A stretch of 64,000 nucleotides of DNA from Alphaproteobacteria bacterium (GTDB taxonomy: Bacteria > Pseudomonadota > Alphaproteobacteria > RF32 > CAG-239). The notes under the pieces were generated by a model, which saw only the letters and a list, made by a program, of their open reading frames with translations, did not search any database and had not been told where the DNA came from. Each line of letters starts with the position of its first letter. Position 1 is the first letter of the stretch. The stretch lies in the NCBI GenBank assembly GCA_015062305.1, contig SUUX01000006.1, positions 8,116 to 72,115 of the forward strand, read 5' to 3'. The position numbers and the translations under genes were made by a program. Positions 12,417 through 46,932 of this stretch are shown here, piece by piece.

Positions 12417-13319
12417 ATGCTATGGATTATCAATGGGTTAATTTATGGTTTTTTCACTGCCTTATATACCCTCGTAAACCAACGCCACAAATTTAATGGC
12501 TACATTTTAGGAATATGGCGAGGCTTTGGTATTGCAATTATCTTTTTTCCCTTTCTTTTTTTATTTCCTCCCCAAACACTTGCGTTCAATTGGGCTTTAT
12601 TAATTTTTCAAGGATGGTTAATTGGCATTTACGATTCCCATTTATTTTTCTCTTCTGCTCAATATGGAGCAGGGCCCACTTCACGAACACTAGCCGTATC
12701 GTCATTAATCACAACCATCATATGGTGGATTATGACCCCAAATTTATTTTTTGAACTTATCGCAAACGAAAATGTCTTTATAACCTTAACATTCGTTCTT
12801 GCAGGGTTCACTGTCAGCTATTGGTATATGATAAAAACCCCCATCAGCAGAGCCGTTGCTCTCTATATGATTCCAGCCATCTTTGCTCTCGCCGGCATGA
12901 GCATAGCCACCAAAGAAATTGCGATGATGGGACAAGATGTTTGGTCTAATTTAACTTATTATTTAGTCGTCGCCACCTTTGTAAGCGGATGCTACAATAC
13001 AATTCAATATATCAAAAAAGAACAACCTAACACCAAGACATTCTTTAGCAACGTCTTTGCTCCTGAAATTGTAAAAACAGGCATATATATCATCGGCTTC
13101 TCAACACTTCTTATTGCATCAAAAACTATGGCGATGCGTCTTGCCCCAAACCCCGGATACGTTGTTGCCTTAGTTTTATCAGCGCCAATATTTGTATATA
13201 TCCTAAACAAGCACAACAAAATTCCAGATAACATCTCTGTCAAAGCTGGTTTCTGCATGCTTTTTTTTCTTGTTTTACTACTAATTATTGTTAATGGAAA
13301 TTGGGGAATAACAGACTAG
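12417..13319 (+). CDS. Polytopic membrane protein, hypothetical (about 10 TM; possibly DMT/EamA-like)
   Basis: Hydrophobic throughout; no diagnostic motif. 3' end overlaps the hemW 3' end convergently. Confidence 0.5.
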   Translation: MLWIINGLIYGFFTALYTLVNQRHKFNGYILGIWRGFGIAIIFFPFLFLFPPQTLAFNWALLIFQGWLIGIYDSHLFFSSAQYGAGPTSRTLAVSSLITTIIWWIMTPNLFFELIANENVFITLTFVLAGFTVSYWYMIKTPISRAVALYMIPAIFALAGMSIATKEIAMMGQDVWSNLTYYLVVATFVSGCYNTIQYIKKEQPNTKTFFSNVFAPEIVKTGIYIIGFSTLLIASKTMAMRLAPNPGYVVALVLSAPIFVYILNKHNKIPDNISVKAGFCMLFFLVLLLIIVNGNWGITD

Positions 13320-16275: not shown

Positions 16276-16309
16276 TGCAAGTAAAGCCCGTAAAAACGGG
16301 CCTTACTTG
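16276..16309. terminator. Hairpin between the lipoprotein gene 3' end and the hslV start (putative terminator)
   Basis: GCAAGTAAAGCCCG taaaaa CGGGCCTTACTTGC (14-bp stem, 1 mismatch), followed by gaaTATTTTTTATT. Confidence 0.4.
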
Positions 16310-16324
16310 CGAATATTTTTTATT

Positions 16325-18460
16325 CTACTTCTTACCGCTCTTCATCGGTTTTGGCGATTTATCTTTGGAATTATCAATAGCGTCAGCCAAAGGTGTTTCA
16401 AAAGTCTTAAACCCAACAGGCTTTCTTGTTCCAAATTCACGACCACAAATCTCAAGACCCAAACTTTTCAGAGCTGTTTCTATCGGAATAAACAAATCCG
16501 GAGTTTCATCATCTTTTTTGGACTTATGAGCCATTCCCACAATATTACCGTGTCTATCAATCAAGGCTCCGCCCAGAGTAACCGTTTGTACAAAAGTATC
16601 AACTATAATCTCAGCGTCTCCACTTTCTGTCCAACGATAACCAATAACTTTTCCTTCATTATCCAGATAACCTTCTCCTTCATCATCCAAATTTAACAAA
16701 CCCAAAGTCATCAAAATATCCTTATTCACTTCTGGCAATTGCAAAGACAAAGGAAGTGGAGAAAATTTTGTTGGCTCATCAAGCATCAACAAGGCCACAT
16801 TTTTACTAGGATTCACTCTCAAAGCAGCAGCTTTCATTTCTTTGCCGTTAATTGTCTTAATTTTGAAATTATTATCATTTTTAACCATCAAATCAGCTGA
16901 AGTCAAAATTAAATTATCCGCAATAATCAAGCCCGCTCCTTTGTATCCATTCATATTTTCAACAGATACTATAGATGCTCTAACTTTATACAAATTATGA
17001 GGGTTCATATCTTCATAAGGAGGATTATTCTTAATACAAAAAGAATTATCTATATTTGCAAACGAATTTTCTAATTCTCCTTTTCCAACAACCAAAGCTT
17101 CTTCATTCGTATCCAACGGCACATCCACCCAATAGTCTTCCAAGACCTTGATATTGTCGGAAACTGTCACATTTTTGACCACAGTACGACTATCCTCATC
17201 AATGGCCACCATTTGACATTCATCATCAATAGCCACAGAAGAACCTGTTCCAACAATACCAGAATCCTCCACTATCGGGGTCAAAGCAACCATATCACCA
17301 ACTGGCTCCAACACTGTTTCTACAATTTCTTCTGTTGCACAAGTACCACATGGAGCCTCTGCCACACAAGTATCACAAACAGAGGTTGCATATCCTGTTC
17401 CGCTTACACCGCCTCTTTCATCAACAAATACTGTCCTTCCTCCAGAAGCCTCAGTCACAAAAGCTTTAGAAGCTAGGGACTTTTGTCCTGGCACAATCAC
17501 CTTATCAGCCACACATTTTTGCAACAACTCCACTCCTTGCATCATTGGGGCATATTGAGCAGCAAACGTATTTTCTCCCAACGCTTTTCCTCTCACAAAA
17601 GCCCACTGCTGAGCCAACACCTCGGGTCTAATACGCTGCGACAATGTTTCATTAAAGCACTGCAACTCCGGAACTTTTGTCAAAGCATCTTCAAAAGCTC
17701 TTTCTGCCAACAAAGTTTCACCATTTGGTTCTCCTTCAGAAATCTGTCCATAGCCGGTTGTCATACCTCGACAATAAACCTCAGATTTATCTAGGCTCAT
17801 AACACGCCAAACCACAGTCATTTCAGAAGAACCGCTTCTCAGCTTCTTTTGCTTTACATTCTCCCAATCAAACTCATCACATATATTCATAAAATAATCT
17901 GTAATTTCTGCAGTCATAATATATTCAGGAATCTCAATTTTGTCTGAATCTGCATAATACGGATTTGTCTTATCCACCACCACAGGATAATAGTCATTCA
18001 TCGTTTCAAAAAACACATCAAAGAAGTGCATATCTTTTTGCATTGCTCTGCCTTCATTCAAAAAGACATTTTTGCTTTCTCTGCGGCAACCGAAAATTCT
18101 AAATCTGTAATTACCCAGCTTGGTATTATAATTTTCATATTCGCCATTTTTTCTAATTCTAAAATCAACATATTCCAGTTTCACAGGAGCAAAACTATCT
18201 CTTCTTTGATGCAAATACAAATAAGCATCTTGCTGTTCTTCATCCAAAATCAATGTCTGATAACGAGGTTTGAGAGTGTCTTGCAAATAAGAAAAACGCT
18301 TAACAGGTTTTTTCTTCATCGGCTCACACATACAATCAAACAGTCCCAGAGTCGATTCGCTACCGTCACACATACACGGAATCAGCTCAGGACTTTCTTT
18401 GCTACAAGAGCTAAGCACCAATGCAAACGCTAGGATTTTCAAACCAATATTTTTCTTCAT
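16325..18460 (-). CDS. Large Cys-rich lipoprotein with a degenerate (catalytically dead) trypsin-like/DegP-like domain
   Basis: Lipobox ...ALVLSSC. CxC/CxxC clusters (PCMCDGS..DCMCEP; SVCDTCVAEAPCGTCATEE). C-terminal S1-fold blocks LILTSADLM, NVALLML and TLGGALIDRHGNIVGM have His->D, Asp->N and Ser->L at the triad positions. Start set to the ATG at 18460 (GGGAG 7 nt upstream); the track's 18478 start is a TTG. Confidence 0.6.
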   Translation of the reverse strand: MKKNIGLKILAFALVLSSCSKESPELIPCMCDGSESTLGLFDCMCEPMKKKPVKRFSYLQDTLKPRYQTLILDEEQQDAYLYLHQRRDSFAPVKLEYVDFRIRKNGEYENYNTKLGNYRFRIFGCRRESKNVFLNEGRAMQKDMHFFDVFFETMNDYYPVVVDKTNPYYADSDKIEIPEYIMTAEITDYFMNICDEFDWENVKQKKLRSGSSEMTVVWRVMSLDKSEVYCRGMTTGYGQISEGEPNGETLLAERAFEDALTKVPELQCFNETLSQRIRPEVLAQQWAFVRGKALGENTFAAQYAPMMQGVELLQKCVADKVIVPGQKSLASKAFVTEASGGRTVFVDERGGVSGTGYATSVCDTCVAEAPCGTCATEEIVETVLEPVGDMVALTPIVEDSGIVGTGSSVAIDDECQMVAIDEDSRTVVKNVTVSDNIKVLEDYWVDVPLDTNEEALVVGKGELENSFANIDNSFCIKNNPPYEDMNPHNLYKVRASIVSVENMNGYKGAGLIIADNLILTSADLMVKNDNNFKIKTINGKEMKAAALRVNPSKNVALLMLDEPTKFSPLPLSLQLPEVNKDILMTLGLLNLDDEGEGYLDNEGKVIGYRWTESGDAEIIVDTFVQTVTLGGALIDRHGNIVGMAHKSKKDDETPDLFIPIETALKSLGLEICGREFGTRKPVGFKTFETPLADAIDNSKDKSPKPMKSGKK

Positions 18461-18474
18461 TATCATGCTCCCAT

Positions 18475-20001
18475 TCAAACTTTGCCTGGCAATGATCTTC
18501 TATAAGACAATGCCTCCGCTACATGGAGTTTAAGGACTTTTAATTCATTTTGCAAGTCCGCAATTGTTCTTGCTAACCGCAAAGTTCTATGATAAGCCCT
18601 TGCTGATAGTTTATTTTTTTCAGCAAACATCACCAATAACGACTTAGCATCATTATCCAGCTCTACAATTTCTTCCAACAAACGCCCCTTCAACCCTGCA
18701 TTGGTACATATTTTTGTCTCGCCAATTTTTCGCAATCTTTGCAACTGAATATTCCTAGCCGCTACAACCCTTTCTCTTATCTGTGCAGATGTTTCTCCCT
18801 GTTTTACATTTGCCAAATCCCACGGACTAACAGCAGGCACTTCTATTTGCATATCTATTCTATCCAATAAAGGCCCCGATATTTTTGCTTGATATTCCTG
18901 TGCACATAAAGGGGCTCTCTTGCATTCCAAAGCATGATCTCCTAAATGCCCGCACCGACAAGGATTCATAGCTGCAATCAGCTGAAAATTTGCCGGATAC
19001 GTTGTATGGGCATTAACTCTGGATATACTAACACTCCCATTTTCCAGCGGTTGTCTCAAAGCTTCTAATGTTGCTTTATTAAATTCCGGCAACTCATCCA
19101 AAAACAACACCCCATTATGAGCCAAAGAAATTTCTCCGGGTTGAGCTTTTCTTCCTCCTCCAACCAAAGCAGGTGTAGAAGCATTATGATGAGGATCCCG
19201 AAAAGGCCTATCAAAAGAAACCCTGCTATCTTTCAATTCTCCGGCAACAGAATGTATCATACTTGTATCCAAAGCCTCTTCCACAGACATCGGAGGCAAT
19301 ATCCCCGGCAATCTTGCCGCCAACATAGATTTTCCCGACCCCGGAGGCCCTATCATCAGCAAATTATGCCCTCCAGCAGCAGCCACTTCCAAAGCTTTTT
19401 TTGCACTTTCCTGCCCCTTGACATCTGCCATATCCAACAAATTTGCTTTTTCTTCTGCTCTCACAGCCTCCGGTTTGGCTAACAGACAAATACCTTTCAG
19501 ATGGTTCAGCAACTCGGTCAAATTTGAAGGAGCAACAATATTTTCAACTCCAGCCCACGCCGCTTCAGAGCCCTGTGCAGCGGGACAAATAACACCCTTT
19601 CCTCTTTTTCTTGCTTTCACAGCTGCCGGCAAAACACCATTAACTGGCAAAACAGAGCCATCAAGCCCCAATTCTCCCATCACCACATAAGCAGATAATT
19701 GTTCAGGCAAAACAACACCCATCACCGCCAACAAAGACAAAGCTATCGGTAAATCAAAATGAGACCCTTCTTTCAGCAAGTCAGCCGGAGCCAAATTAAT
19801 AACAATCCTCTTGGCGGGCAAATTCAATCCTAAAGATTGCAAAGCAGAACGAACTCTCTCCCTGCTTTCAGCAATAGCCTTATCAGGCAAACCAACGATA
19901 ATAAAATTGGGCAGACCTGCAGTCAATTGAACCTGCAAATCAACATCCAAAACTTCCAACCCATTAAACGTTATTGTATCAACCCTAGCTAGCATTCTCA
20001 C
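18475..20001 (-). CDS. comM: YifB/ComM family Mg-chelatase-like AAA+ ATPase
   Basis: N-terminal Lon-like domain, Walker A MIGPPGSGKSMLA. 508 aa. Confidence 0.9.
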   Translation of the reverse strand: MRMLARVDTITFNGLEVLDVDLQVQLTAGLPNFIIVGLPDKAIAESRERVRSALQSLGLNLPAKRIVINLAPADLLKEGSHFDLPIALSLLAVMGVVLPEQLSAYVVMGELGLDGSVLPVNGVLPAAVKARKRGKGVICPAAQGSEAAWAGVENIVAPSNLTELLNHLKGICLLAKPEAVRAEEKANLLDMADVKGQESAKKALEVAAAGGHNLLMIGPPGSGKSMLAARLPGILPPMSVEEALDTSMIHSVAGELKDSRVSFDRPFRDPHHNASTPALVGGGRKAQPGEISLAHNGVLFLDELPEFNKATLEALRQPLENGSVSISRVNAHTTYPANFQLIAAMNPCRCGHLGDHALECKRAPLCAQEYQAKISGPLLDRIDMQIEVPAVSPWDLANVKQGETSAQIRERVVAARNIQLQRLRKIGETKICTNAGLKGRLLEEIVELDNDAKSLLVMFAEKNKLSARAYHRTLRLARTIADLQNELKVLKLHVAEALSYRRSLPGKV

Positions 20002-20304
20002 CTACCATCTAGGAGCAGATTCCGTATCACGCCACCTGCGTGTTGGATAAGTGTCCACTTTCAAAAAATCATACTTTGCCGTATTATAAGGAATATCTCT
20101 AAACCGAACATAGCCTTCTTGCTCAAACTTTTCAGCACACTCATTTGCTCCGTCCAGCGTATCACCATAACATCTAACAACAGTTCTATCTTGCAAATTC
20201 TGCAAGCCAATTTCTACTTGTCCATCACCAAAATCTTGAGCCCAAACATCTAAAGCAACAACAAGACCAAGCATTAAAAATGTAAAAACATTGAAAAACC
20301 GCAT
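20002..20304 (-). CDS. Small secreted hypothetical protein (100 aa), first gene of the comM operon
   Basis: Signal peptide MRFFNVFTFLMLGLVVALDVWAQD. Stop abuts the comM start. Confidence 0.45.
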   Translation of the reverse strand: MRFFNVFTFLMLGLVVALDVWAQDFGDGQVEIGLQNLQDRTVVRCYGDTLDGANECAEKFEQEGYVRFRDIPYNTAKYDFLKVDTYPTRRWRDTESAPRW

Positions 20305-20445: not shown

Positions 20446-20504
20446 CAAGAACCGGTTCTAAAAAATAGAACCATTTGTTGAGAAATCCATAAGGAGATTT
20501 TATA
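20446..20504 (+). promoter_or_regulatory. rpsF 5' leader with a palindrome/hairpin; candidate S6:S18 autoregulatory leader plus RBS
   Basis: GAACCGGTTC palindrome, and GGTTCTaaaaaatAGAACC hairpin, then AAGGAG 9 nt before the rpsF ATG. Confidence 0.3.
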
Positions 20505-21590: not shown

Positions 21591-21624
21591 AAAAAAGCTC
21601 TGCTGATTTGCAGAGCTTTTTTTT
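21591..21624. terminator. Bidirectional rho-independent terminator (rplI / convergent methyltransferase gene)
   Basis: A-run, then AGCTCTGC tgatt GCAGAGCT, then T8. Confidence 0.8.
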
Positions 21625-22324
21625 ATTTTCCATATTTATTATAAAAGTCTTTTCGTTTTTTTCGCCCCATATTCCATAAATTTCCGATTCCATCTATAGG
21701 TTGAACCGCTTCAACCGTCGAAAAATCAAAATCCCTTCTCAAAAAAACAGAGGTCGTTTTTGTATAATTATTCATAGGGCAAAACCCATAAAAGTCCACT
21801 TGTATCAAATTTTCTTTTTTCAGAACAGCTACAGCTTTTTTATATTCTTCACTCGTATTTATTCTATCGCTATCATCCAATATAATCATTCCACCGGCTG
21901 CCAACTTTTTTACCGCTGTTTCACAGCATTTTTCTCTTCTTTTTCCATCCACAACTATCACATCATAAACATCTTCACTTTCAAAGATTGCATTTTCATA
22001 AATTTCCCCTTCATCCCTCCACAACACTTGCAAATTTGGAGCTTTCATTTCTTTTTGCCATTTTTCAAACCATTTCAAATTATCTTCTACACTAACAACT
22101 TCTTTAGCTCGTGACGCCCAAAATTTAGAAGAATTACCACATCCAAATTCAAAAATTTTTTTATTAGAATAATCAAATTGGCTCAAATACTCTATTGCAG
22201 GATATGTATACCAAGGTATTGGATTTCCGTTTTTATCTTCACAAACTTTTTCATCAATAGTTCGCCCAATCGCAAACTCCTCCATCCACATCTTAATAAA
22301 AATCTCAACTTTTTCACTGTACAT
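21623..22324 (-). CDS. Class I SAM-dependent methyltransferase (substrate unknown)
   Basis: Motif I IFEFGCGNSS. Motif post-I VVSVED. Later VIVVDGKRRE...AGGMIILDD. 233 aa. Confidence 0.6.
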   Translation of the reverse strand: MYSEKVEIFIKMWMEEFAIGRTIDEKVCEDKNGNPIPWYTYPAIEYLSQFDYSNKKIFEFGCGNSSKFWASRAKEVVSVEDNLKWFEKWQKEMKAPNLQVLWRDEGEIYENAIFESEDVYDVIVVDGKRREKCCETAVKKLAAGGMIILDDSDRINTSEEYKKAVAVLKKENLIQVDFYGFCPMNNYTKTTSVFLRRDFDFSTVEAVQPIDGIGNLWNMGRKKRKDFYNKYGK

Positions 22325-32475: not shown

Positions 32476-35400
32476 TTAATCAATTTTCATAATATTTGCT
32501 GTATTAGTCCACAAAATATACATTTCCACTGTTTTATTTTTATATATTCTTTCCACCAAAGATTTATACGCCCTTAACTGCTTAATATAAATATTAGGAA
32601 CATCTGCCAGACTTTTTGCGGCAGGTCTGTTTGTCTTAAAATCCACAATCATAACTTTATCTTCTAGCACAGCCAATCTGTCAATTTGCCCAGATATAAT
32701 TTGACCGTTAACCTCTCCCATTATAGGAACTTCAGACTTAGCTCTCGCCCCAAATAAAGGAGCAAATTTATCGTCATTTATCAAACAAACAACCTCTTCA
32801 ATTACTTGTTTCCGCTCCCTCTCAGACAAATAAGCCGCATGACGATTTACATATTCTGAGGCTTTTTGTCTTTGTTCTTCTTTTGCCACATCTGGCAATA
32901 GTTGTAACATTTTATGAATCAAAGACCCTCTTCTATAAAACTCAGGATGTTTTTCATTCAATGGAGAAGACGCCACAAAATCTTCATCATCTAATCTAGA
33001 TGGCATCAATGGCTTCGCCAACATTCCCTCTATTGGAGCTTCTTTTTTTATCCACTCAAAACACATTTCTTCTTTTTTTTGTTTTTCACAACATTCTTCT
33101 GCTGGCAAAGGAGCCGTCTGAATAACATCATAAATCAAATTATCTTGTTCTTTTCTTGATATTTTCGATATAGCCTTACGGCAAAGTTCATACCAACTAT
33201 CTTCACTTACCTTTCCACCGCGTTGGTACCCACACAAACATAATCGCTCTTCTGCTCTTGTCAAAGCAACATAAAGCAATCTATGATATTCATCTAAAGA
33301 TTTTTTCTTTTCATCTTCTTTTATTTTTTTACAATTCTTCTCATATTCTGCAGACCCAAATGGATAAAACAAAACATCTTCATCCATCAATAGACCTGCT
33401 TCATTTCTAATTGCTTTTACTCTTACCATATCTGGCAATATAACAACTGGCGCCTGCAAACCTTTAGAGCCATGAACTGTCATTATCCTAACCGCATCAA
33501 CATCGCTCTGTTCCATTTCTCTTTTAATTTCAACATCATCTTCTGCAATCCATTCAATAAACAACTGCATAGAAGGAATATGTTCTTGCTCAAATCTCAA
33601 AGACAAATTAATAAACTCATCCAAACCATCTTCTACTTCAAAGCCAATTCTGGAAACAAACTTTTTTCGCCCTTCCATACGGTTCAATACATAGCTATAA
33701 AATTCAAAAGGTCGAACTTTATCCGCCATATTCAGCAACTGTTGCAGTTTTTCTGATACTTCTTCATACTTAGTATTTTCTTTTATCCTCTGCCACAAAG
33801 ACATATTTTTTCGATTATAACACAAATCTAACAAATCATCATCTTGTAATCCAAACAAAGGTGATTTTAAAATTTCGGCCAAAGTCAAATCATCATCCGG
33901 AAGCAAAACAAATTTTCCTAAAGAAACCAAGTCTTGAACAGCAATTTGTTCCAACAATCTAATTTTGTCTGCTCCAGCAATATTTACGCCCACATTTTTA
34001 CAAGCTCTAATCAATTCCTCAACAAAGCTATTTCTTCGCTGAACCAATATCATAAAGTCTCTATATCTTAATGGACGATTTTGAGAAACAAGCATTTCCC
34101 GCTCACTAACCATCTTATATATTCTGGCGGCAATCATTTTTGCTAATTTAGAGCTTGTCGATTCTGCAACAACTCTTTCAACGGGAGGCAACCATATGTC
34201 TGGGTTTTCTCCTTTTTCAGCTTCTACTAATGGCCATAATTCCACCTTTCCTGCCTCTCCGATTCTAGATGGTATATGCCACACTTTCTGCTCTTCTGTT
34301 GCCACGCCTTGTTTAGCATCATCTTCCGCAAAAACACTGTTGACAACGTCCAAAATTGCAGCTGTAGACCTAAAAGAAACTTCCAAATTGATTTTTTTAA
34401 ACCCTACTTTTGCATTTTTCTGCCCCAAAAAATGTTTGCACATTTTTTCAAACTCAACAGGGTCTGCTCCCTGAAAAGAATAAATAGACTGCTTTCTATC
34501 TCCAACCACAAATAACGTACCATTTTTTTCTTTTGTTCCATTCCCATAAAAAAACTCATTGGTTATAGCTCTAACAATTGCCCACTGATCTGCTGAAGTA
34601 TCTTGAGCCTCATCAATCAATACATTATCTATTCCACCGTCAAGCTTATACAAAACCCACTCTGCAACTTGTGGATTTTCCAATAAATTTCTGGCTAAAA
34701 CAATCAAATCTTCATAATCTGCTTTTGAATGTAATTCCTTATATTTACTATAACCATCCAATAATTCTTCGGCCAACAGCACCACTGCTTTCGTTGATTC
34801 AAACAACTTAATTGCCGCCAACCTATTATCAAAATCCAGCACTCGAGAAGTTTCCTCATCAACAAATTCTCTTCCCTCTGGATATATCTTAAACACCTCT
34901 TGAGTCGCAAATCTCTTTCTTGGCTCACCCTTATCCGTCACAAATATTTTTCGATAAGCATCATAATTTTTCAACTTAACAGCAGCACCTAAATCTTTAG
35001 CTTTTTCAGCATCTGCAGAAGATCCTTTTTGCATCGCCCCAACCAAAGACTTTATCTCAGATAATCTTATTTGTCTCCAAAACTCATTCTCAATATCTTC
35101 CGATGTATCATCAAAATTCAAGCTCAATTTTTTAGCAACATTATGCAATAAAACATCTGCTCCTCCATTTTTCTTTAGCAAACGCATTATTTTACTTCTA
35201 TTTTCAGTCAACGAATTCATCAATGAAGGAAACGTAAATTCGCTCATTTTTGCAGTAATAAAAGCTAGGACCTTTGCTGTTTTGCTTTCAGGTTCTTCTT
35301 CTATTTTTTGCAAAAGTTTTTTTCTTATTACAAACAATGCTTCTTTTGCTGTCCTATCATCCATAACTTCAAAATATGGCGATATTTTCGCTTCTAGAGG

Positions 35401-35841
35401 AAATCTTTTTAATATTTCCTGACAAAAACTATGAATAGTTTGTATTTTCATCCCTCCGGGAGTATCCAACAACACTGCAAACAAACGTCTTGCCTGAGCC
35501 ATTAATTTTGCAGAAACATTATCAATTCCCAAAAGTTTCATCAATTCGCCACACAAAACCTCATCGCTTGCAACAGCCCACTTGCTAAGCTTATCAGCTA
35601 TTCTAGAGCTCATTTCCACAGCAGCTGCTTTTGTATATGTCAAACACAATATTTTTCCGGGCAAATTTCCTTCCAACAACAACCTTAAAACTCTGTCTGA
35701 AAGAACTTTTGTTTTTCCCGTTCCTGCTGAAGCCTCCACCCATACAGACAATTCCGGATTAGATGCTTGCCTCTGCTGAGCAGAAGCCAAATCTATTCTT
35801 TTTTGCTTTTCTTCTTTTAGGTCAATCATCTTCAGCCTCAT
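32476..35841 (-). CDS. addA: Double-strand break repair helicase/nuclease AddA (UvrD-like)
   Basis: Walker A EASAGTGKTKVL, UvrD helicase motifs, and a C-terminal PD-(D/E)xK nuclease. Start placed at the ATG at 35841 (MRLKMIDLKEE...), overlapping the addB stop; the ATG at 35829 is an alternative. Confidence 0.88.
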   Translation of the reverse strand: MRLKMIDLKEEKQKRIDLASAQQRQASNPELSVWVEASAGTGKTKVLSDRVLRLLLEGNLPGKILCLTYTKAAAVEMSSRIADKLSKWAVASDEVLCGELMKLLGIDNVSAKLMAQARRLFAVLLDTPGGMKIQTIHSFCQEILKRFPLEAKISPYFEVMDDRTAKEALFVIRKKLLQKIEEEPESKTAKVLAFITAKMSEFTFPSLMNSLTENRSKIMRLLKKNGGADVLLHNVAKKLSLNFDDTSEDIENEFWRQIRLSEIKSLVGAMQKGSSADAEKAKDLGAAVKLKNYDAYRKIFVTDKGEPRKRFATQEVFKIYPEGREFVDEETSRVLDFDNRLAAIKLFESTKAVVLLAEELLDGYSKYKELHSKADYEDLIVLARNLLENPQVAEWVLYKLDGGIDNVLIDEAQDTSADQWAIVRAITNEFFYGNGTKEKNGTLFVVGDRKQSIYSFQGADPVEFEKMCKHFLGQKNAKVGFKKINLEVSFRSTAAILDVVNSVFAEDDAKQGVATEEQKVWHIPSRIGEAGKVELWPLVEAEKGENPDIWLPPVERVVAESTSSKLAKMIAARIYKMVSEREMLVSQNRPLRYRDFMILVQRRNSFVEELIRACKNVGVNIAGADKIRLLEQIAVQDLVSLGKFVLLPDDDLTLAEILKSPLFGLQDDDLLDLCYNRKNMSLWQRIKENTKYEEVSEKLQQLLNMADKVRPFEFYSYVLNRMEGRKKFVSRIGFEVEDGLDEFINLSLRFEQEHIPSMQLFIEWIAEDDVEIKREMEQSDVDAVRIMTVHGSKGLQAPVVILPDMVRVKAIRNEAGLLMDEDVLFYPFGSAEYEKNCKKIKEDEKKKSLDEYHRLLYVALTRAEERLCLCGYQRGGKVSEDSWYELCRKAISKISRKEQDNLIYDVIQTAPLPAEECCEKQKKEEMCFEWIKKEAPIEGMLAKPLMPSRLDDEDFVASSPLNEKHPEFYRRGSLIHKMLQLLPDVAKEEQRQKASEYVNRHAAYLSERERKQVIEEVVCLINDDKFAPLFGARAKSEVPIMGEVNGQIISGQIDRLAVLEDKVMIVDFKTNRPAAKSLADVPNIYIKQLRAYKSLVERIYKNKTVEMYILWTNTANIMKID

Positions 35842-38722
35842 TAACGTACCATTCTTTAACTCGAGCCAAATGTTCATAATCCGAATATTCTGGCACTCTT
35901 TTAGGATTTGGATGACAGATATACGCCGTTTCTTCAATATCAAATAGAGTTATCAATTCCTTTATTCTTTGCTCCGTATTTTCCAATATTTTTTCCAGTT
36001 CTTTCTCTATCACGATCTGTTTCTTAGACAATTGCCAATACATCAATTTTTCAACGTCTGCAGCAGATACCCCCTCAAAACCACCACTCTTTACAATCAA
36101 TCCTTCCAACGGTAGCTGAGGAGCAAAACCAGCGCAAACTTCCTTAACACTTCTCGCTTTACCTGTTTTATAATCAATGATATTCACTCGTCCATCAGAC
36201 ACAACATCTATTCTATCTGCCTTTGCTGTTACCCTAAATCTTCCTCCGGCCAAATCCCAATCAACAAACCCTTTTGTTTCATTTATAACCCGAACAATTT
36301 CTTTTCTATAATCTTGCTCTATCTCAGCCAAATGCTCTATCATTTTTGCAAATCTTGGCCACCAAAACGCCTTTTTATCTGCCAGTTTTTCATCTGCAGA
36401 AAACTTTTTACGTCCCATTTCTAATAAAATTTCTTTTCCAGATTCCGGAAACACGCATGAATATTTGTTATTAAATTCTTCCAATACCGAATGCAATAAA
36501 TCTCCAAAATCAGCCGGTGTAAGTTCTTCTTTTAAGCCATCCAGAGGATATAATTTCAAAATATATTTAGCAAAAACACTATATGGGTCTCGCATTAACA
36601 GCTCTATACCACTAACAGATAGTTCTCTTGGTCTTACTTGCAAAGGAGGGGTCGGAGCAGGCGCCAAAATTTTTTCAAATATTTCTGGTTCATCTATTTT
36701 TTCTGATGCATATGAATATCTTGTTTCTACCAAGTGCTTAACATCTATTTTCCAGGCCTTCAAAACAGTTTCCAAACGCATCCACCATCTAGATTTCAGC
36801 ATTGGAGCCCCCTCCACTCTGTTTGCTCGAGTTAAATATACATCTTTGGCCCCCATAAACGACACCAAATCCAAACCCAAAATCCCAATAGCCTTTTCCT
36901 GCAGAGGGAATCCAAAATCTTTTTTCATTGGTCTAGACATCCAAGGATCTGACGGAGCTGCTTGTGGCCACACTCCTTCGTTAACCTCTCCCAAAATCAT
37001 AACGTCTGCTTGATTAAATCTCGCCTCAATAGGTCCTAAAATTTTCAACCTCGGATGCATACCATAGCGCAACCTCACCGGTTTTTCAAAAGACAAAGCC
37101 TCAAAAAAAGCCAAATATTCAGAAGAATCTATTTTTCCTAAAACATCTGAGTTTTCAATCAGCTCTGCTACAAGCTTAGCCCCCACATCTCCAGCCTCTC
37201 CTCGCCATAAAGCCTCTGCACCGCCTAAAGCATCACTCTGAGCTATTTTTTCTGCGGTCCTTATGTGTTCTTCAACCAGTTCTTTTAACTGCACATCTGT
37301 TTTTCTTATTATTTCCCGCAAAGGAAGCAACTTTTCTTGTAATTCTCTTAAAATACTTTCATCATTATCATTTGGCTTTACTCTTTTTCTCCATACATTT
37401 TTTTCCATATTTCGTGTCTGGTTTCTCACATCTGATTTTACCATGCCCAAACAACACAACGGATGTTTCAACAACGCCAATATCTCCGACTTACCGGCAT
37501 CTTGTTGTGCCGCAGAAAACACCAACCGCATAAAAATCCCCCATGGCGTCAAAGCCAATGGCTTGCCGGCAGAATCATCAATCTTTATATTCCAACGTTC
37601 CAGTTCTCCGGCCACTCTTCTGGCCAAATTTCTATCTGGCGTAACCAGAATTGCTGTTTTTTCAGGCGTTTCCAAAACCTCACGCATCAAAAGAGCTATA
37701 CATAAAGCTTCTTCTCTAACATCAGCACAATCCAACAAATGCAAACCGTTTATAGCTTGTCTGTCCATGCTTTTATCTGTCAAAAGCCTCCATTTATCAC
37801 TCTTGGAAGCCGGGCGCATCATTTCAGATAACAACACTTCTCTTTCTTCACGTTGAGAAACCGCTATATTTTTTACTTCTTCTCTAGAAACGCCCAAATA
37901 CTCCAAAAGTTTTTTTAGTTCATATTGTGGATGCGTTTCATCCACCTCATCCCAAGATTCCTCATCCAAATTTTTATCCAAGCAGTTCAAAATTACCTCT
38001 CCCCGAGGCAGATTTGCAACCACTTTCACCAATTCTCGCATAGCCGGATATGTAGCTGTACTTCCTGCCACAATAATTCTTTTTTGTGTTTTATGTTTTT
38101 CCCAAATTTCTGCTTGAGTTCGAATCAATTGCATTTTTCTCTTACTTGCATCTACACTTTTTCGCTCAATCAAAATTTCAGGCCAATATTTAGTTATAAT
38201 TTCCAAAAAACGTAAAGTTTCTTGCCAATGTCCGGCATATTCTTCAGGAACCAAATTATTCAAATTGGCAAAGTCCAACTCTTCATAATTAACCGTATCA
38301 ATCAAATTGCCCAAATCTCTTGCTAAAGCGTACGCCTGATTCAAGGATATTTTCTCCGCTCCAAATTCTTGAGGACGGGACATAATAATTTTAACAAACA
38401 ACAAATTCCTTTCCATCGGGTTCATTGCTGGCAACATAGCCATTTCTGCCTGTGTTGCATCTATACCAAACCATACCACATCTTCTTCCATTTCACCCAA
38501 AGGCATCATTTGTGGCAACATTGTTGGTTGCATTCCTTGTCTTCGCACAAAAGCATCTGCCATTGTTTTGCAAGATCTTCTATTTGGCAACAGCAACAAC
38601 ACATCCGATAGTTCCAACGGATTCTCTCTATATTCATTCAGCAATTTTTCCGCAACAACATCTGCAAAATTATTAGACGCAGAAATATTAAAAATATTAT
38701 TTTGCACCAAACATTTCCTCAA
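35822..38722 (-). CDS. addB: Double-strand break repair protein AddB
   Basis: 966 aa. Inactive helicase-like N-terminus with a C-terminal nuclease. Immediately upstream of and overlapping addA. Confidence 0.85.
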   Translation of the reverse strand: MRKCLVQNNIFNISASNNFADVVAEKLLNEYRENPLELSDVLLLLPNRRSCKTMADAFVRRQGMQPTMLPQMMPLGEMEEDVVWFGIDATQAEMAMLPAMNPMERNLLFVKIIMSRPQEFGAEKISLNQAYALARDLGNLIDTVNYEELDFANLNNLVPEEYAGHWQETLRFLEIITKYWPEILIERKSVDASKRKMQLIRTQAEIWEKHKTQKRIIVAGSTATYPAMRELVKVVANLPRGEVILNCLDKNLDEESWDEVDETHPQYELKKLLEYLGVSREEVKNIAVSQREEREVLLSEMMRPASKSDKWRLLTDKSMDRQAINGLHLLDCADVREEALCIALLMREVLETPEKTAILVTPDRNLARRVAGELERWNIKIDDSAGKPLALTPWGIFMRLVFSAAQQDAGKSEILALLKHPLCCLGMVKSDVRNQTRNMEKNVWRKRVKPNDNDESILRELQEKLLPLREIIRKTDVQLKELVEEHIRTAEKIAQSDALGGAEALWRGEAGDVGAKLVAELIENSDVLGKIDSSEYLAFFEALSFEKPVRLRYGMHPRLKILGPIEARFNQADVMILGEVNEGVWPQAAPSDPWMSRPMKKDFGFPLQEKAIGILGLDLVSFMGAKDVYLTRANRVEGAPMLKSRWWMRLETVLKAWKIDVKHLVETRYSYASEKIDEPEIFEKILAPAPTPPLQVRPRELSVSGIELLMRDPYSVFAKYILKLYPLDGLKEELTPADFGDLLHSVLEEFNNKYSCVFPESGKEILLEMGRKKFSADEKLADKKAFWWPRFAKMIEHLAEIEQDYRKEIVRVINETKGFVDWDLAGGRFRVTAKADRIDVVSDGRVNIIDYKTGKARSVKEVCAGFAPQLPLEGLIVKSGGFEGVSAADVEKLMYWQLSKKQIVIEKELEKILENTEQRIKELITLFDIEETAYICHPNPKRVPEYSDYEHLARVKEWYVNEAEDD

Positions 38723-42950: not shown

Positions 42951-45020
42951 TTAAAACAATTTCAACACACCTTGAGAGGCTTGTGACGCCAGCGATAGGG
43001 CATTAATCGCCAATTGTTGACGAGTTTGCAAAGCCAGCATATTGGCAGATTCTTCATTCATATCCGCCAAAGTGAGCTTATCTGAGCCCTCGGTGAGGAT
43101 GTTTATTAGGTTTTCGGTAAAATCTTGTCTGTTCATCACAATGCTATAATTATTGCCAAGTTCTCCGGAAAATGCACGCAACTGATTTATGGCTGATGTC
43201 AGTTCTCCTATTGAGCGAGAAATATCTTCAACCGTTGCCCATTCTGTTGTGGTTAGCCCGATATTTGCGGCAGAAATATCTTTGCCTACCACATCAATAA
43301 AAGCACTGCCATCTTCATTAAATTTGATTTTCAGAGTTTCATTTTTGAGCAGGTTTACACCCTTGTATTTGGCATCATCAATCAAGTCATCATATTGATT
43401 CAAAATCTTTTGATATTGGCTGATATCATAGCCATCTGCCGGAGCCTCACCACCACCGGCATCACGGCGCAGGCTAAACGCCACCGGATTCTCACTACCT
43501 CCAACCGTGATGGTGCTAAAGGTGCCCCAATCAGAACCATCTCCAGTAAAATCCTTCATTCCGGAGATGTCTGTATAACTTGACCATTCTAAATCCCCTA
43601 AGTTTTTTAAGCTCATAATTTTGGCTGAGGAACCATCTTCAGAAAGGCTGACGATAATACCAACTGCGGTTTTGCTACCTTTATAGGTATCATAATCATT
43701 GGCACTACTATAGGTAAAATCAGAGTACATTATATCGCCGATTTTAGGAGTTGCATTACTGCCATCAGCAGATTTCGCACTACCATCGGTGAAACAATTT
43801 TCTAAAAGCTGGAAACTACGAACTGAATAGGTAGTACCTTTAGTATAGTTGTAACGACCACCGCTATCGGTAACGAGACTCCAAGAATAGCTGTTGCTTC
43901 TCTCAGAAGACGACCAAATGAAAGAAGCTAATTGCTCTGCATCTGCACCCAATTTGCCCAAAGCTGTATTTATGGTGTTGAAATGCTCTGCATCAGCTCC
44001 TGCGGTTCCAAAATATTCACTATCTGATATCTGTGTTGTATCTGTGCCATACAAGCCATCAGCTAATTCGCCAATAGATGGCAAATACCAGGTGCCTTTA
44101 CCAAAATTGGCATCTTTTTCGCTAACAACATAATAGTTATATGCCGCATCTGCCGCCGGAGTATCTGCTTCTGTTTGAGTAACCAACAATTTTGTGTTCA
44201 TCTCACCATCATAAACAACCGCTGCATCGGCATTAAACACCTTGCGTGCCAACTCTCCATTGGTAGAAATATTTTTGGCTGTATCCAATGTTATTTGTGA
44301 GTTCCCTTCAGCAACCACGCCATGCACATAGTCACCGCTGGTTTTGATTGTAATATCGCTCAAAGTAATTTCGGCACCATTGCTAGCCAAAATAGCTCCG
44401 GTTGAACCATAAATAACGCCATTTGTTGAGGTATAATCCAGCTCAATATTTGATACTTCCACACCGGTGCCAGTAAATTTGAGCAAATTGTCGCCACCAC
44501 TATAACTTATTTTATTGCCGTTACCATTTATGATAATATCACTCTCACTAATCTCCAAAGGAGCGTCTAGCACCAAATCATCGGCAAGCACCAATTTGGT
44601 TGCTCCTCCTGCTATCAAGGTTTTTATATCATCGGCACTGGCTCCGGCAGAAATAACCTCATAACCATCATCAATAAAATCTTGCAATTTGTCTTCTTTG
44701 GACAAAGAATTTCCGCTTTCATCAAGAACTTGAGTAGCTACCGCTTTGGCTTGCTCCAAAAAAGAGGTGGCGGTTTCAATAGCTGTGGTAGCGGCTTTGA
44801 TGGTCTGAATTCCTTGCCCCATAGAGTCAAGCAGGGCATCGAGGTCATTGGCTCTGTTGTTCAAAGAACGTGCCGTATAAAAAGAAGAGGGATTATCAAT
44901 GGCAGAATTAACCTTTTTGCCGGTGGATAGACGTTCTTGGGTCAAATCCATCAGACTACTGGTCTTTTGCAAGCTCAGCAAATTGCTGCGCATGCTTGCT
45001 GTCAAACTAATCTTTGCCAT
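42951..45020 (-). CDS. fliC: Flagellin-family protein with a large (about 400 aa) central beta-helix-like domain
   Basis: N-terminal D0/D1 ...QERLSTGKKVNSAIDNPSSFYTARSL... C-terminal ...MLALQTRQQLAINALSLASQASQGVLKLF. Central region has repetitive G/S/T/N-rich beta-strand-like segments. No other flagellar genes in the window. Confidence 0.8.
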   Translation of the reverse strand: MAKISLTASMRSNLLSLQKTSSLMDLTQERLSTGKKVNSAIDNPSSFYTARSLNNRANDLDALLDSMGQGIQTIKAATTAIETATSFLEQAKAVATQVLDESGNSLSKEDKLQDFIDDGYEVISAGASADDIKTLIAGGATKLVLADDLVLDAPLEISESDIIINGNGNKISYSGGDNLLKFTGTGVEVSNIELDYTSTNGVIYGSTGAILASNGAEITLSDITIKTSGDYVHGVVAEGNSQITLDTAKNISTNGELARKVFNADAAVVYDGEMNTKLLVTQTEADTPAADAAYNYYVVSEKDANFGKGTWYLPSIGELADGLYGTDTTQISDSEYFGTAGADAEHFNTINTALGKLGADAEQLASFIWSSSERSNSYSWSLVTDSGGRYNYTKGTTYSVRSFQLLENCFTDGSAKSADGSNATPKIGDIMYSDFTYSSANDYDTYKGSKTAVGIIVSLSEDGSSAKIMSLKNLGDLEWSSYTDISGMKDFTGDGSDWGTFSTITVGGSENPVAFSLRRDAGGGEAPADGYDISQYQKILNQYDDLIDDAKYKGVNLLKNETLKIKFNEDGSAFIDVVGKDISAANIGLTTTEWATVEDISRSIGELTSAINQLRAFSGELGNNYSIVMNRQDFTENLINILTEGSDKLTLADMNEESANMLALQTRQQLAINALSLASQASQGVLKLF

Positions 45021-45160: not shown

Positions 45161-46930
45161 TTATTTACCATACTTGTTACGAGCAACATAATGAGTATGC
45201 AACAAGTGATGGGCTTTTTCCCCACCAGCCTTACCCAAATATTCTTTATACAAGGTTTTTACAGACTCATTATGATGAGACAAACGATTAGCTGCTTTCA
45301 GATCTTCATTCATCAATCCTTTCGCACGCTTTTTACGAATATCATCGGTAATGCCTCTCGGTTTTGGCTGTCCAGGCAACATTACTCTTGGCTGTCCACC
45401 ACCAGAGATACAGCCTCCACGGCAAGCCATCACCTCAACAAAGTGATATGGCATTGGCTCTCCATTTGCCCTTGCTTCTCTAATTCTATTGAGAATAACC
45501 TCAATATTTCCACAACCATGAGCTACAGCTATTCTTATCTTAGTGTCATTGATTACAATTTCGGCCTCTTTAATGCCCTCTAAGCCTTCTATAGCCTTAA
45601 AATTCACTTCACCCAGCTCTTCTCCAGTAATATAGAAATAAGCTGTACGCAAAGCCGCCGTCATAACACCTCCGGTCACACCAAAGATTGTTCCAGCACC
45701 GGAATATTCTCCCAACGGACTATCTGCCTCTTCTTCTGGCAGATTTCTAAAGTCGATTCCGGCTTGTTTTATCATTCTGCAAAGTTCTCTGGTAGTCAAA
45801 GAAACATCAACATCTTGATATCCGGAAGAACTCATATCTTTGCTTCTGGTAATCTCCCATTTTTTTGCAGTACATGGCATTATAGAAACCACCCTTATCT
45901 TAGATGGATTTATTGCCATTTTCTCTGCATAATAGGTCTTAGCCAAGGCCCCAACCATAGATTGAGGAGATTTACATGTTGAGAAATTATCTATCATATC
46001 ATGATGATATTTTTCCAACATATCAACCCAAGCCGGACAACAAGACGTAAACATCGGCAAACTTTCTGGATTCTTGGTAAAACGATTTACAAACTCTGTT
46101 GCCTCTTCTATAATCGTCAAATCAGCACCAAAGTTGGTATCAAACACCTTATTAAACCCTAGTCTGCGCAATGCGGCATAAGTCTTGCCAGTCAAGTTTT
46201 TACCAAACTCATAGCCAAACTCTTCACCTATTGCCACTCTCACAGCCGGAGCAATCTGCACCACAGTAATCAGCTCTGGATCACAAAGCATATCCCATAC
46301 TTTTTGTGTCTCATCATACTCCACAATAGCCCCTGTTGGACAATGCGCTGAACATTGTCCGCATTTAATACAAGGACTATCCGCCAAAGGAATACCTCCG
46401 GCAGCAGTAATTCTTGTTGCCAAACCTCTGTTTAGATAGCTCAAAGCCCAAACATTTTGCTGGTTCTGACAAACCTCCACACAGCGGCCGCAAACCACAC
46501 ATTTAGAAGGATCAAGCACTATAGACTTTGTTGAATCATCTTTTTCCAACTTTTTAGTCAAGCTTGGCAAACGAGAAGAAGAAATCCCAAACGTATTTGA
46601 CAGGTCTTGCAGTTCACAATGCCCGGAACGAATACATGTCAAACACTCATTGGGGTGATTGCTCAAAATCAGCTCCAAAACCGTACGTCTTACTGCAACA
46701 ATTTCAGCATCTCCGGTAATCACTTCCATACCTTCGGCAACAGGTGTACAACAAGAACGCAAAATTCTGCCATTCACTTTCACAATACACATTCCGCAAC
46801 CGGCACTTGGATCAACATCTGGATGCTTACAAAGGGTCGGAATATCTATATGAGCCTTTCTTGCTGCCTCTAAAATGCTTGTTCCAGCCGGAACTTCAAC
46901 CTCAAAATTATCTATTTTTAACTTTACCAT
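45161..46930 (-). CDS. hydA: [FeFe]-hydrogenase catalytic subunit HydA (M3-type: 2Fe-2S + His-ligated 4Fe-4S + 2x[4Fe-4S] + H-cluster)
   Basis: H-cluster motifs L1 FTSCCPAW, L2 MPCTAKKWE, L3 EVMACRGGCISGGGQP. N-terminal NuoG-like CxxC..C. HPNECLTCIRSGHC. CVVCGRCVEVC and CIKCGQCSAHC. Confidence 0.9.
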   Translation of the reverse strand: MVKLKIDNFEVEVPAGTSILEAARKAHIDIPTLCKHPDVDPSAGCGMCIVKVNGRILRSCCTPVAEGMEVITGDAEIVAVRRTVLELILSNHPNECLTCIRSGHCELQDLSNTFGISSSRLPSLTKKLEKDDSTKSIVLDPSKCVVCGRCVEVCQNQQNVWALSYLNRGLATRITAAGGIPLADSPCIKCGQCSAHCPTGAIVEYDETQKVWDMLCDPELITVVQIAPAVRVAIGEEFGYEFGKNLTGKTYAALRRLGFNKVFDTNFGADLTIIEEATEFVNRFTKNPESLPMFTSCCPAWVDMLEKYHHDMIDNFSTCKSPQSMVGALAKTYYAEKMAINPSKIRVVSIMPCTAKKWEITRSKDMSSSGYQDVDVSLTTRELCRMIKQAGIDFRNLPEEEADSPLGEYSGAGTIFGVTGGVMTAALRTAYFYITGEELGEVNFKAIEGLEGIKEAEIVINDTKIRIAVAHGCGNIEVILNRIREARANGEPMPYHFVEVMACRGGCISGGGQPRVMLPGQPKPRGITDDIRKKRAKGLMNEDLKAANRLSHHNESVKTLYKEYLGKAGGEKAHHLLHTHYVARNKYGK

Positions 46931-46932
46931 GG

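Follow-up and report, generated by a model that had tools for sequence, protein, structure and literature searches.

The minus strand of a 64,000-nucleotide stretch of contig SUUX01000006.1 (positions 8,116 to 72,115; assembly GCA_015062305.1, Alphaproteobacteria bacterium), hereafter called the window, encodes a 711-residue lipoprotein with a C-terminal domain of the HtrA type in which all three residues of the catalytic triad are replaced. The comparisons described below make it fairly probable that this protein is a repurposed, non-catalytic binding module, that is, a two-domain envelope lipoprotein that has become a pseudoprotease in a clade of uncultured bacteria found mostly in gut and rumen samples. 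In the mechanism proposed here, the protease domain would no longer cleave, its triad having changed from His to Asp, from Asp to Asn and from Ser to Leu, Ile or Val, and the retained substrate-binding cleft, lined by Asp523, Asn554, His645 and Leu629, would bind a ligand. The N-terminal domain (N-domain) would hold the protein at the membrane, with a flexible linker letting the C-terminal domain (C-domain) reach across the periplasm. The candidate ligand is a small exported protein, encoded by the first gene of the same three-gene cluster, which would be recognized via its invariant basic and aromatic tail (PTRRWR...PRW-COOH). A pseudoprotease had already been proposed in the original prediction, a short note made from the DNA letters, and the strong purifying selection found on the dead domain fits that proposal. 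The features that define this domain are the following:

16445 to 16972, minus strand: HtrA-like (S1C) domain of chymotrypsin fold, no PDZ domain, residues 497 to 672
16892 to 16894, minus strand: Asp523, at the position of the catalytic His (alignments to HTRA1 and to active relatives)
16799 to 16801, minus strand: Asn554, at the position of the catalytic Asp (same alignments)
16574 to 16576, minus strand: Leu629, at the position of the catalytic Ser (same alignments)
16526 to 16528, minus strand: His645, a new His at a Ser214-like position (placed by sequence register only)

The fold assignment is supported by both sequence and modelled structure. Residues 508 to 643 match the Pfam Trypsin_2 profile (PF13365) over its whole length (positions 1-144 of 144), with an E-value of 9.6e-9 and 36.6 bits against a cutoff of 27.6. 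In a full-length AlphaFold2 (AF2) model, built from a 127-sequence alignment and having a mean predicted local distance difference test score (pLDDT) of 77 and a predicted template modelling score of 0.65, the pLDDT of the C-domain lies mostly between 74 and 96. Foldseek searches with this model retrieved DegS, DegQ, DegP, HtrA1, MucD, Rv3671c and the S1C domain of RsgI9 at E-values from 3e-11 to 6e-9, with template modelling scores (TM-scores, normalised to target length) of up to 0.76 against the HtrA-type targets DegS, DegQ, DegP and HtrA1. When the protein was aligned to human HTRA1 with phmmer, LILTSAD paired with LIVTNAH (His to Asp523), KNVALL with ADIALI (Asp to Asn554) and TLGGAL with GNSGGPL (Ser to Leu629), and the alignments to active members of the family agree. 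The S1/DegP-like fold and the loss of the triad at all three positions, both originally assigned by eye, are thus borne out; the profile alignment that had been suggested as a check gave a full-length match, and an intact triad was not found in it.

The protein shares with HtrA, DegP, DegQ and DegS (MEROPS family S1C) the chymotrypsin-type fold, the periplasmic location, strands of the DxAL type and a TLGG sequence in place of GNSGG. It differs from them in lacking both the His-Asp-Ser triad that defines an active S1C serine endopeptidase and the PDZ domain, in being lipid-anchored through an unrelated N-domain and in having a long disordered insert. With regard to the PDZ domain, no Pfam match was obtained, TIGR02037 scored 17 bits against a cutoff of 416, and the polypeptide ends only 39 residues past the protease fold.

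The origin of the dead form became apparent from its relatives. When the N-domain was searched with HMMER against all of 1.84 billion cluster representatives, only 88 clusters were recovered, which fall into two groups:

Short group, 410 to 465 residues (about 440): intact TNxHV, RDVAL and GNSGG motifs, N-domain joined directly to the HtrA-like domain
Long group, 550 to 1180 residues: Asp, Asn and Leu, Ile or Val at the three triad positions

All 20 short members that could be aligned over the C-domain have His, Asp and Ser at the triad, and about 30 long members have mostly Asp, Asn and an aliphatic residue, with a few intermediates (Ser-Asp-Leu, Lys-Asp-Leu, Gly-Asp-Leu and Asn-Gly-Leu). The short forms are presumably active proteases, as judged from their motifs; they come from metagenome-assembled genomes (MAGs) of free-living Rhodospirillales and from Shumkonia mesophila, and are annotated as S1C serine proteases. 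The long dead forms come from uncultured Alphaproteobacteria, mostly of gut and rumen samples, and the related contigs with a named source are likewise mostly from human or animal gut (for example 'Proteobacteria bacterium CAG:495' and MAGs from roe deer caecum and sheep colon). The short Rhodospirillales lipoproteins, such as the Shumkonia mesophila protein P0279 ('S1C family serine protease'), are homologous to the window protein over both domains (22-29% identity overall) and have the same N-domain, conserved Cys pair and lipobox. They differ in their intact triad, in the absence of the linker, the CxC motif and the C-terminal tail, and in having neither ComM nor the small gene nearby. Since these intact-triad forms share the two-domain architecture, the dead protein derives from an existing lipoprotein-protease architecture and not from a new fusion.

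Loss of the triad was accompanied by other changes. Of about 34 dead members that could be aligned, 27 have a His at the Ser214-like position, which none of the 20 active ones has, and Ser521, Lys553, Asp655, Cys475 and Cys672 are fixed in the dead lineage and absent from the active relatives. The four N-terminal Cys residues and the basic C-terminal tail are also specific to the dead lineage. Two further regions flank the protease fold:

16973 to 17236, minus strand: small strand/helix subdomain preceding the protease fold, residues 409 to 496, conserved in the dead lineage
16328 to 16444, minus strand: basic C-terminal extension (isoelectric point, pI, of 10), residues 673 to 711, absent from active relatives

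The first includes Cys415, a DYW sequence, Pro448 and Cys475, and the second holds a conserved TPLADAID...KxPKxM segment. As read from these alignments, the old active site was not simply left to decay: it was rebuilt and has since been kept unchanged.

The ratios of nonsynonymous to synonymous substitution rates (dN/dS) point in the same direction. They were calculated by the Nei-Gojobori method on orthologue pairs with dS below 1.3, many pairs being saturated at synonymous sites, and amounted to 0.00-0.04 for the N-domain and 0.03-0.06 for the region with the dead protease fold. Linker values were 0.03-0.25, with a maximum of 0.36 among pairs that have diverged further. The dead domain is therefore under strong purifying selection and constrained like a working domain; the linker evolves faster, with no sign of positive selection. 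The protein as a whole diverges faster than the products of neighbouring genes, its N-domain being 36-43% identical in loci where ComM is 67-72% and RplI 80-85% identical. That the gene is a decaying pseudogene, or an assembly or fusion artefact of two open reading frames (ORFs), has a practically negligible probability and was ruled out: the loss of catalytic residues is all that speaks for it, and a single intact frame is found in more than 1,200 homologues, with the low dN/dS of the dead domain and an architecture that is ancestral. The fusion artefact against which the original prediction had cautioned can accordingly be set aside.

The same set of fixed residues raises the question of whether the domain might still be an enzyme with a rewired site, for instance an Asp523-His645 pair working with Ser521 or with water in a new hydrolytic activity. 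The Asp at the His position, the His at the 214-like position and Ser521 are all conserved in the dead lineage and absent in active forms, and the Gly-Gly of GNSGG is kept as TLGG around the former nucleophile. However, nearly all members have Leu, Ile or Val in place of the nucleophile, which makes a rewired site unlikely, and the His position varies (Gly, Ser, Asn, Lys) in several of them, a pattern that binding fits better. A triad permuted in this way is not known from the chymotrypsin fold, and this counts against an enzymatic role, which we regard as very improbable.

Binding modules made from dead proteases have precedent. MamO, from the magnetosome of Magnetospirillum, is an HtrA-family pseudoprotease with a degenerate triad that binds metal via surface His residues and activates the protease MamE (PMC4794232). 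Like the window protein, it is an alphaproteobacterial envelope protein with a conserved, degenerate-triad HtrA-type domain. Unlike it, MamO has a TauE-like membrane domain and a di-His motif and is encoded in the magnetosome island, none of which is present in the window protein or its locus; the latter is lipid-anchored, has a different N-domain and comes from an operon with ComM. Neither TauE nor any other extra domain was found by Pfam in the lipoprotein, whose neighbours are housekeeping genes, and the NCBIfam models for MamO and MamE gave weak generic matches only, even to the active relatives; there is no close sequence relationship. The second precedent is the S1C-NTF2 ectodomain of RsgI9, the sensor of an anti-sigma factor of Clostridium thermocellum, which was the best Foldseek match of the full model (7sjy, E-value 3e-11). 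Its S1C domain is described as protease-like and cellulose-binding (PMC12203970), and by that description it resembles the window protein as an S1C fold reused as a ligand-binding module. It differs in belonging to a Gram-positive membrane anti-sigma factor, in its partner domains and genomic context and in sharing only 19-20% identity.

The MamO precedent also inspires two alternatives to the proposed binding module. One is that the lipoprotein, itself non-catalytic, partners with or regulates an active HtrA-type protease whose gene lies elsewhere in the genome, in the way MamO activates MamE, or through mixed oligomers. HtrA proteases work as trimers or higher oligomers. Moreover, active and inactive HtrA paralogues are reported to have become paired repeatedly and independently (PMC4794232). 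Nevertheless, no second HtrA-like gene lies within the 64-kb window and the short active form was seen in no dead-lineage locus, as if it had been replaced rather than duplicated, and a regulator of this type seems distinctly unlikely.

The other alternative is a metal- or redox-linked pseudoprotease comparable to MamO, in which the Asp523/Asn554/His645 site, the N-terminal Cys motif, or both, would bind a transition metal or sense the redox state of the periplasm. The alphaproteobacterial origin of MamO and its metal binding via surface His residues (PMC4794232) suggest it by analogy, and Asp, His and Asn are common metal ligands, here fixed only in the dead lineage. The Cys motif itself belongs to the membrane-proximal part of the protein:

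18404 to 18460, minus strand: signal peptide and lipobox L-S-S-C, residues 1 to 19, Cys19 being the lipidated residue (sequence pattern)
18326 to 18376, minus strand: CMC...CMC motif (PCMCDGSESTLGLFDCMCEP), Cys29, Cys31, Cys43 and Cys45, residues 29 to 31 and 43 to 45
17501 to 18205, minus strand: N-terminal folded domain, residues about 86 to 320, no family annotation
17237 to 17500, minus strand: disordered, length-variable linker, residues 321 to 408, pLDDT 34 to 52

The four Cys of the CMC...CMC motif are invariant among the close dead relatives and absent in the active ones, and distant dead members carry DGSxFPGGxCxxC repeats, of the form GxxCxxC, in their place. In addition, some orthologues of the small protein carry a CDxCxW motif just past the signal peptide. 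On the other hand, no metal-binding family or motif was detected with Pfam or NCBIfam, the di-His motif and TauE domain of MamO are absent, and the CMC...CMC segment, which lies between the lipid anchor and the N-domain, is modelled as disordered (pLDDT < 50), and its Cys might do no more than pair in disulfide bonds. A role in metal binding or redox sensing is considered unlikely, if slightly less so than that of a protease regulator.

The original prediction had taken the whole N-terminal half for a Cys-rich region with clustered CxC and CxxC motifs. Of those clusters, CMC...CMC is indeed conserved in the dead lineage, but the CDTC and CGTC pair (residues 362-374) falls inside the disordered linker and is not conserved. 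The structure prediction that had been suggested for this half revealed instead a folded, highly conserved lipoprotein domain (residues ~86-320, modelled with pLDDT > 90) that in relatives is already fused to an active protease. The lipoprotein assignment itself stands, by pattern matching only: the lipobox reads MKKNIGLKILAFALVLSS-C19 and fits the [LVI][ASTVI][GAS]C pattern. Cys19 is conserved family-wide, in the dead and active subfamilies alike. Cys125 and Cys194 of the N-domain are also conserved throughout the family. Genes for LptD and LptF/G in the window indicate an outer membrane in this organism.

No Pfam or NCBIfam model matches the N-domain, and it does not belong to the CsgG, LptE or DUF330 families. 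Structural comparison gave scores of 9.1 for XCC0632 (DUF330), 8.9 for CsgG, 8.5 for Cj1090c, 8.5 for PqiC, 8.2 for a flagellar basal-body (LPHT-ring) protein, 7.4 for PelC and 6.6 for LptE, with lower scores for HpaA, TolB and LpoB, and Foldseek listed CsgG first (2.5e-6), then DUF330, Cj1090c, CT253, LptE and FlgT. TM-scores to the CsgG/LptE/PqiC-like structures are low (0.2-0.5), with 6-15% identity. In its modelled fold the N-domain thus appears to resemble periplasmic and outer-membrane lipoproteins remotely, and not as a family member: it is set apart from outer-membrane lipoproteins of the CsgG, LptE, PqiC (DUF330) and PelC types by that low identity and by the lack of a match to their family models. 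A CsgG-like membrane pore was considered and not adopted, as its three long strands lack, by inspection, the amphipathic pattern of transmembrane beta strands.

Differences in the length of the linker give rise to homologues of 580 to 1176 residues, and Bflower_2 and DUF3659-type repeats are inserted in the linkers of some relatives. The window copy contains two copies of a short motif, [DE]x[SG]G[VI]xG[ST]G, which recurs one to three times in 14 of the 21 dead-lineage linkers checked and in none of the five active relatives checked. Examples are DERGGVSGTG and EDSGIVGTG, and the motif is also present in P0004, P0020, P0062, P0091, P0120, P0148 and P0348, among others.

The candidate ligand is encoded at the head of a cluster of three minus-strand genes that the lipoprotein gene closes:

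20002 to 20304, minus strand: small exported-protein gene, first in the operon, 100 residues (ORF list and ribosome-binding site)
18475 to 20001, minus strand: YifB/ComM gene, second in the operon, 508 residues from a GTG start (TIGR00368, Pfam)
16325 to 18460, minus strand: triad-dead lipoprotein gene, third in the operon, 711 residues, stop codon at 16325-16327

The small protein has no Pfam, NCBIfam or PDB match. Its window copy has a signal peptide, many orthologues having a lipobox instead, and it contains two conserved Cys residues and ends in the tail TYPTRRWRDTESAPRW, directly followed by the stop codon. This tail, in the form [TSN][YF]PTRRWRx5[PS]RW-stop, was present in 75 of 75 distinct variants. 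The mature protein is acidic (pI 4.7), although its last 20 residues have a pI of 10; the pseudoprotease domain likewise has an acidic pI of 4.7. A DNA-binding role was judged unlikely, the basic character being confined to those last residues. The near-exceptionless co-occurrence of the two genes, the shared compartment of their products and the invariant, oppositely charged tail make the small protein the most economical candidate partner for the pseudoprotease, and it is put forward as a tentative one, this pairing being possible rather than probable on what the sequences tell.

A separate observation concerns several orthologues of the small gene (L006, L008, L009, L010, L011, L029, L031, L032 and L057), which have CD[IV]C[DEN]W[KR] just past the signal peptide. 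The motif is missing from the window copy; in its position it is reminiscent of the N-terminal Cys motif of the pseudoprotease.

The middle gene belongs to a known family. It matches ComM/YifB both in its TIGR00368 score (558.6 bits against a cutoff of 362.4) and in full domain architecture (ChlI, Mg_chelatase and Mg_chelatase_C in Pfam), and falls below the cutoff of the enterobacterial equivalog NF007365 (433 against 530). ComM is a hexameric branch-migration helicase of natural transformation, that is, a cytoplasmic DNA helicase (10.1101/147660). No operon joining ComM to exported proteins was encountered in the ComM/YifB literature surveyed, in which no search was aimed at one, and nothing was found on the lipoprotein family or on a ComM-protease operon. 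Of the elements described here, the dead protease used as a binding module has a precedent; the literature found contains no description of the N-domain, of the small protein or of the ComM operon. An anti-phage defence system was also considered for the locus and rejected, PADLOC having returned generic trypsin-domain and AAA matches only (E-values 1e-9 to 1e-3).

The three genes had been described as tightly coupled, with abutting or overlapping ends. Their spacing is indeed 0-14 nucleotides (nt), and the supposed overlap proved to be close spacing instead. The stop of the small gene directly abuts the ComM GTG at 20001 (an alternative ATG lies 6 nt further in). The ComM stop codon occupies 18475-18477, and a 14-nt gap separates it from the lipoprotein ATG at 18460, which is preceded by GGGAG. 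The ORF as listed (16325-18478, minus strand, 717 residues) begins at a TTG abutting the ComM stop, and the ATG at 18460 is likely to be the real start; the 711-residue product is identical to database protein P0001. Downstream of the trio lie hslV, hslU and a HemW-like radical-SAM gene, and upstream, in divergent orientation, rpsF, rpsR and rplI. Between the lipoprotein gene and hslV is a further element:

16277 to 16310, minus strand: 15-bp hairpin GCAAGTAAGGCCCG-TTTTTA-CGGGCTTTACTTGC, 14 nt past the lipoprotein stop, without a T-run

The absence of a T-run hid this hairpin from the terminator scan, and it was identified by reading and folding the sequence. A 71-nt stretch containing it and two small hairpins has a minimum free energy of -30.6 kcal/mol (z -7.2), none of 200 shuffles being as stable. 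The corresponding sequences downstream of the gene in relatives reach z < -3 in 67 of 81 distinct cases, and canonical hairpins with T-runs make up most of those displayed, including at loci where hslV comes next. The operon thus probably terminates at this hairpin, before hslV begins. The scan for promoters gave weak consensus matches only, and no convincing heat-shock promoter was seen by eye. As an independent observation, a terminator-like hairpin on both strands (GGTTCTAAAAAATAGAACC, window 20453-20473) lies between the divergently oriented rpsF and small gene, where promoters would be expected rather than terminators.

The arrangement is widely conserved in related bacteria, as had been recommended for checking. 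In all 39 species-level genomes the order rplI-rpsR-rpsF, divergent from small gene-ComM-lipoprotein gene, was found as far upstream as the contig reaches, and hslVU-hemW comes next in most loci with enough downstream contig. The single-protein contig scan covered the close clade only, and distant members came from the representative search and contig look-ups. These distant dead members (36-43% N-domain identity) keep the order small gene-ComM-pseudoprotease, with a ComM-pseudoprotease gap of 6-14 nt, and differ downstream, where RbfA follows the trio in locus L046 and unrelated genes in L047. When metagenomes were scanned for the small protein, 80 loci were obtained; with counts limited to those with enough sequence, ComM lies immediately downstream of the small gene in 55 of 57 and the N-domain gene follows ComM in 44 of 45. 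In nearly all loci the gap between ComM and the lipoprotein gene is 6-28 nt. The three-gene operon of the original prediction thus recurs in about 120 related loci, with a terminator-type hairpin after it, and the hairpin together with the conserved trio makes it look like a self-contained transcription unit. That the three genes form one such unit is probable from their layout; the link with ComM is one of co-location.

It is quite possible, if short of probable, that this link is purely positional and that the lipoprotein serves in envelope stress or quality control as a holdase-like HtrA remnant whose older neighbour is hslVU. The genes of seven active relatives were compared: two lie between hisB and hslVU, four beside a DLH/PNP/mtnA-like cluster and one elsewhere. 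In the first two (Shumkonia mesophila, L040 6001-9310, and a JGI metagenome contig, L130 4001-7337) the active short homologue is directly upstream of hslV-hslU, as are the window gene and most dead loci, so that the hslVU neighbourhood may be older than both the triad loss and the ComM linkage. Furthermore, ComM is a cytoplasmic DNA helicase (10.1101/147660) and the other two products are exported, and the unrelated rpsF operon is an equally near-constant neighbour. Against a merely positional link, the trio stays intact where hslVU is absent from the examined downstream DNA (L046, L047 and L096) and at loci with no rpsF operon upstream (for example L100 and L110), its short spacing is kept, and the terminator-type hairpin separates it from hslV.

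At the other extreme, the trio could be one functional unit, in which the remodelled site captures either the PTRRWR...PRW tail or a metal, and the periplasmic pair is coupled to the ComM/YifB motor. Such coupling might serve, for example, recombination or the uptake of DNA, or else a role of YifB that has gone unrecognised in non-competent bacteria. From the sequences at hand this appears decidedly improbable.

Several points weigh against the binding module with the small protein as its ligand, and against reading much into the operon. The 'Ser214-like' position of His645 is assigned by sequence register only, and Asp523, Asn554 and His645 are merely presumed to lie close together. The tail of the small protein could equally bind the N-domain or an unrelated partner. 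The synteny comes from one clade, in which ComM is 63-80% identical across loci and gene order is generally conserved, the unrelated rpsF-rpsR-rplI genes being near-constant neighbours too; with order conserved clade-wide, membership of the operon may partly reflect inheritance. The active short forms never adjoin ComM or the small gene. Finally, in locus L106 the small gene is not followed by ComM, convergent uvrA and then rho coming next; that copy (L106 4-555) is a 183-residue lipoprotein version with the PTRRWR...PRW end, and the locus is the sole exception to the trio among those with enough sequence.

Other observations in the window stand apart from the lipoprotein. The GC skew is negative in every 2-kb bin from 1 to 64000 (-0.07 to -0.38, mostly about -0.3, at ~37% G+C), and so uniform and strong a skew, with no switch across 64 kb, is unusual for an alphaproteobacterium. 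Positions 45161-48624 encode the large subunit of an [FeFe]-hydrogenase, which carries 2Fe-2S and 4Fe-4S domains, beside a NuoF-like flavoprotein; the hydrogenase looks multimeric and possibly electron-bifurcating, and points to an anaerobic fermentative lifestyle. The flagellin at 42951-45020 is unusually long (689 residues), with some 490 unmatched residues between Flagellin_N and Flagellin_C. Positions 32476-38722 encode a UvrD helicase that resembles AddA and includes a PD-(D/E)XK nuclease domain, as well as an AddB-like PD-(D/E)XK protein; the two ORFs overlap by about 120 nt as listed, the downstream one probably having been listed from an upstream TTG. The ORFs at 21623-22324 (233 residues) and 12417-13319 (300 residues) have no Pfam match, and the first adjoins the rplI end of the ribosomal operon.

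In practical terms, a close member of the lipoprotein's cluster is publicly named 'trypsin-like peptidase domain-containing protein', a label that wrongly implies enzyme activity for more than 1,200 homologues, mostly of human and animal gut Alphaproteobacteria. The intact-triad short forms of free-living bacteria and the dead long forms of host-associated ones constitute a natural before-and-after pair, useful for studying how a protease scaffold is repurposed. Two families for which neither Pfam nor NCBIfam has a matching model emerge from the analysis as well, one being the N-terminal lipoprotein domain and the other the small exported protein. The role of ComM/YifB is established only in naturally competent bacteria, and its fixed operon with these genes offers a concrete, testable lead for a widely conserved ATPase. 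If the trio did turn out to be a functional unit, it would give YifB its first envelope partners and add a new protease-derived recognition module.

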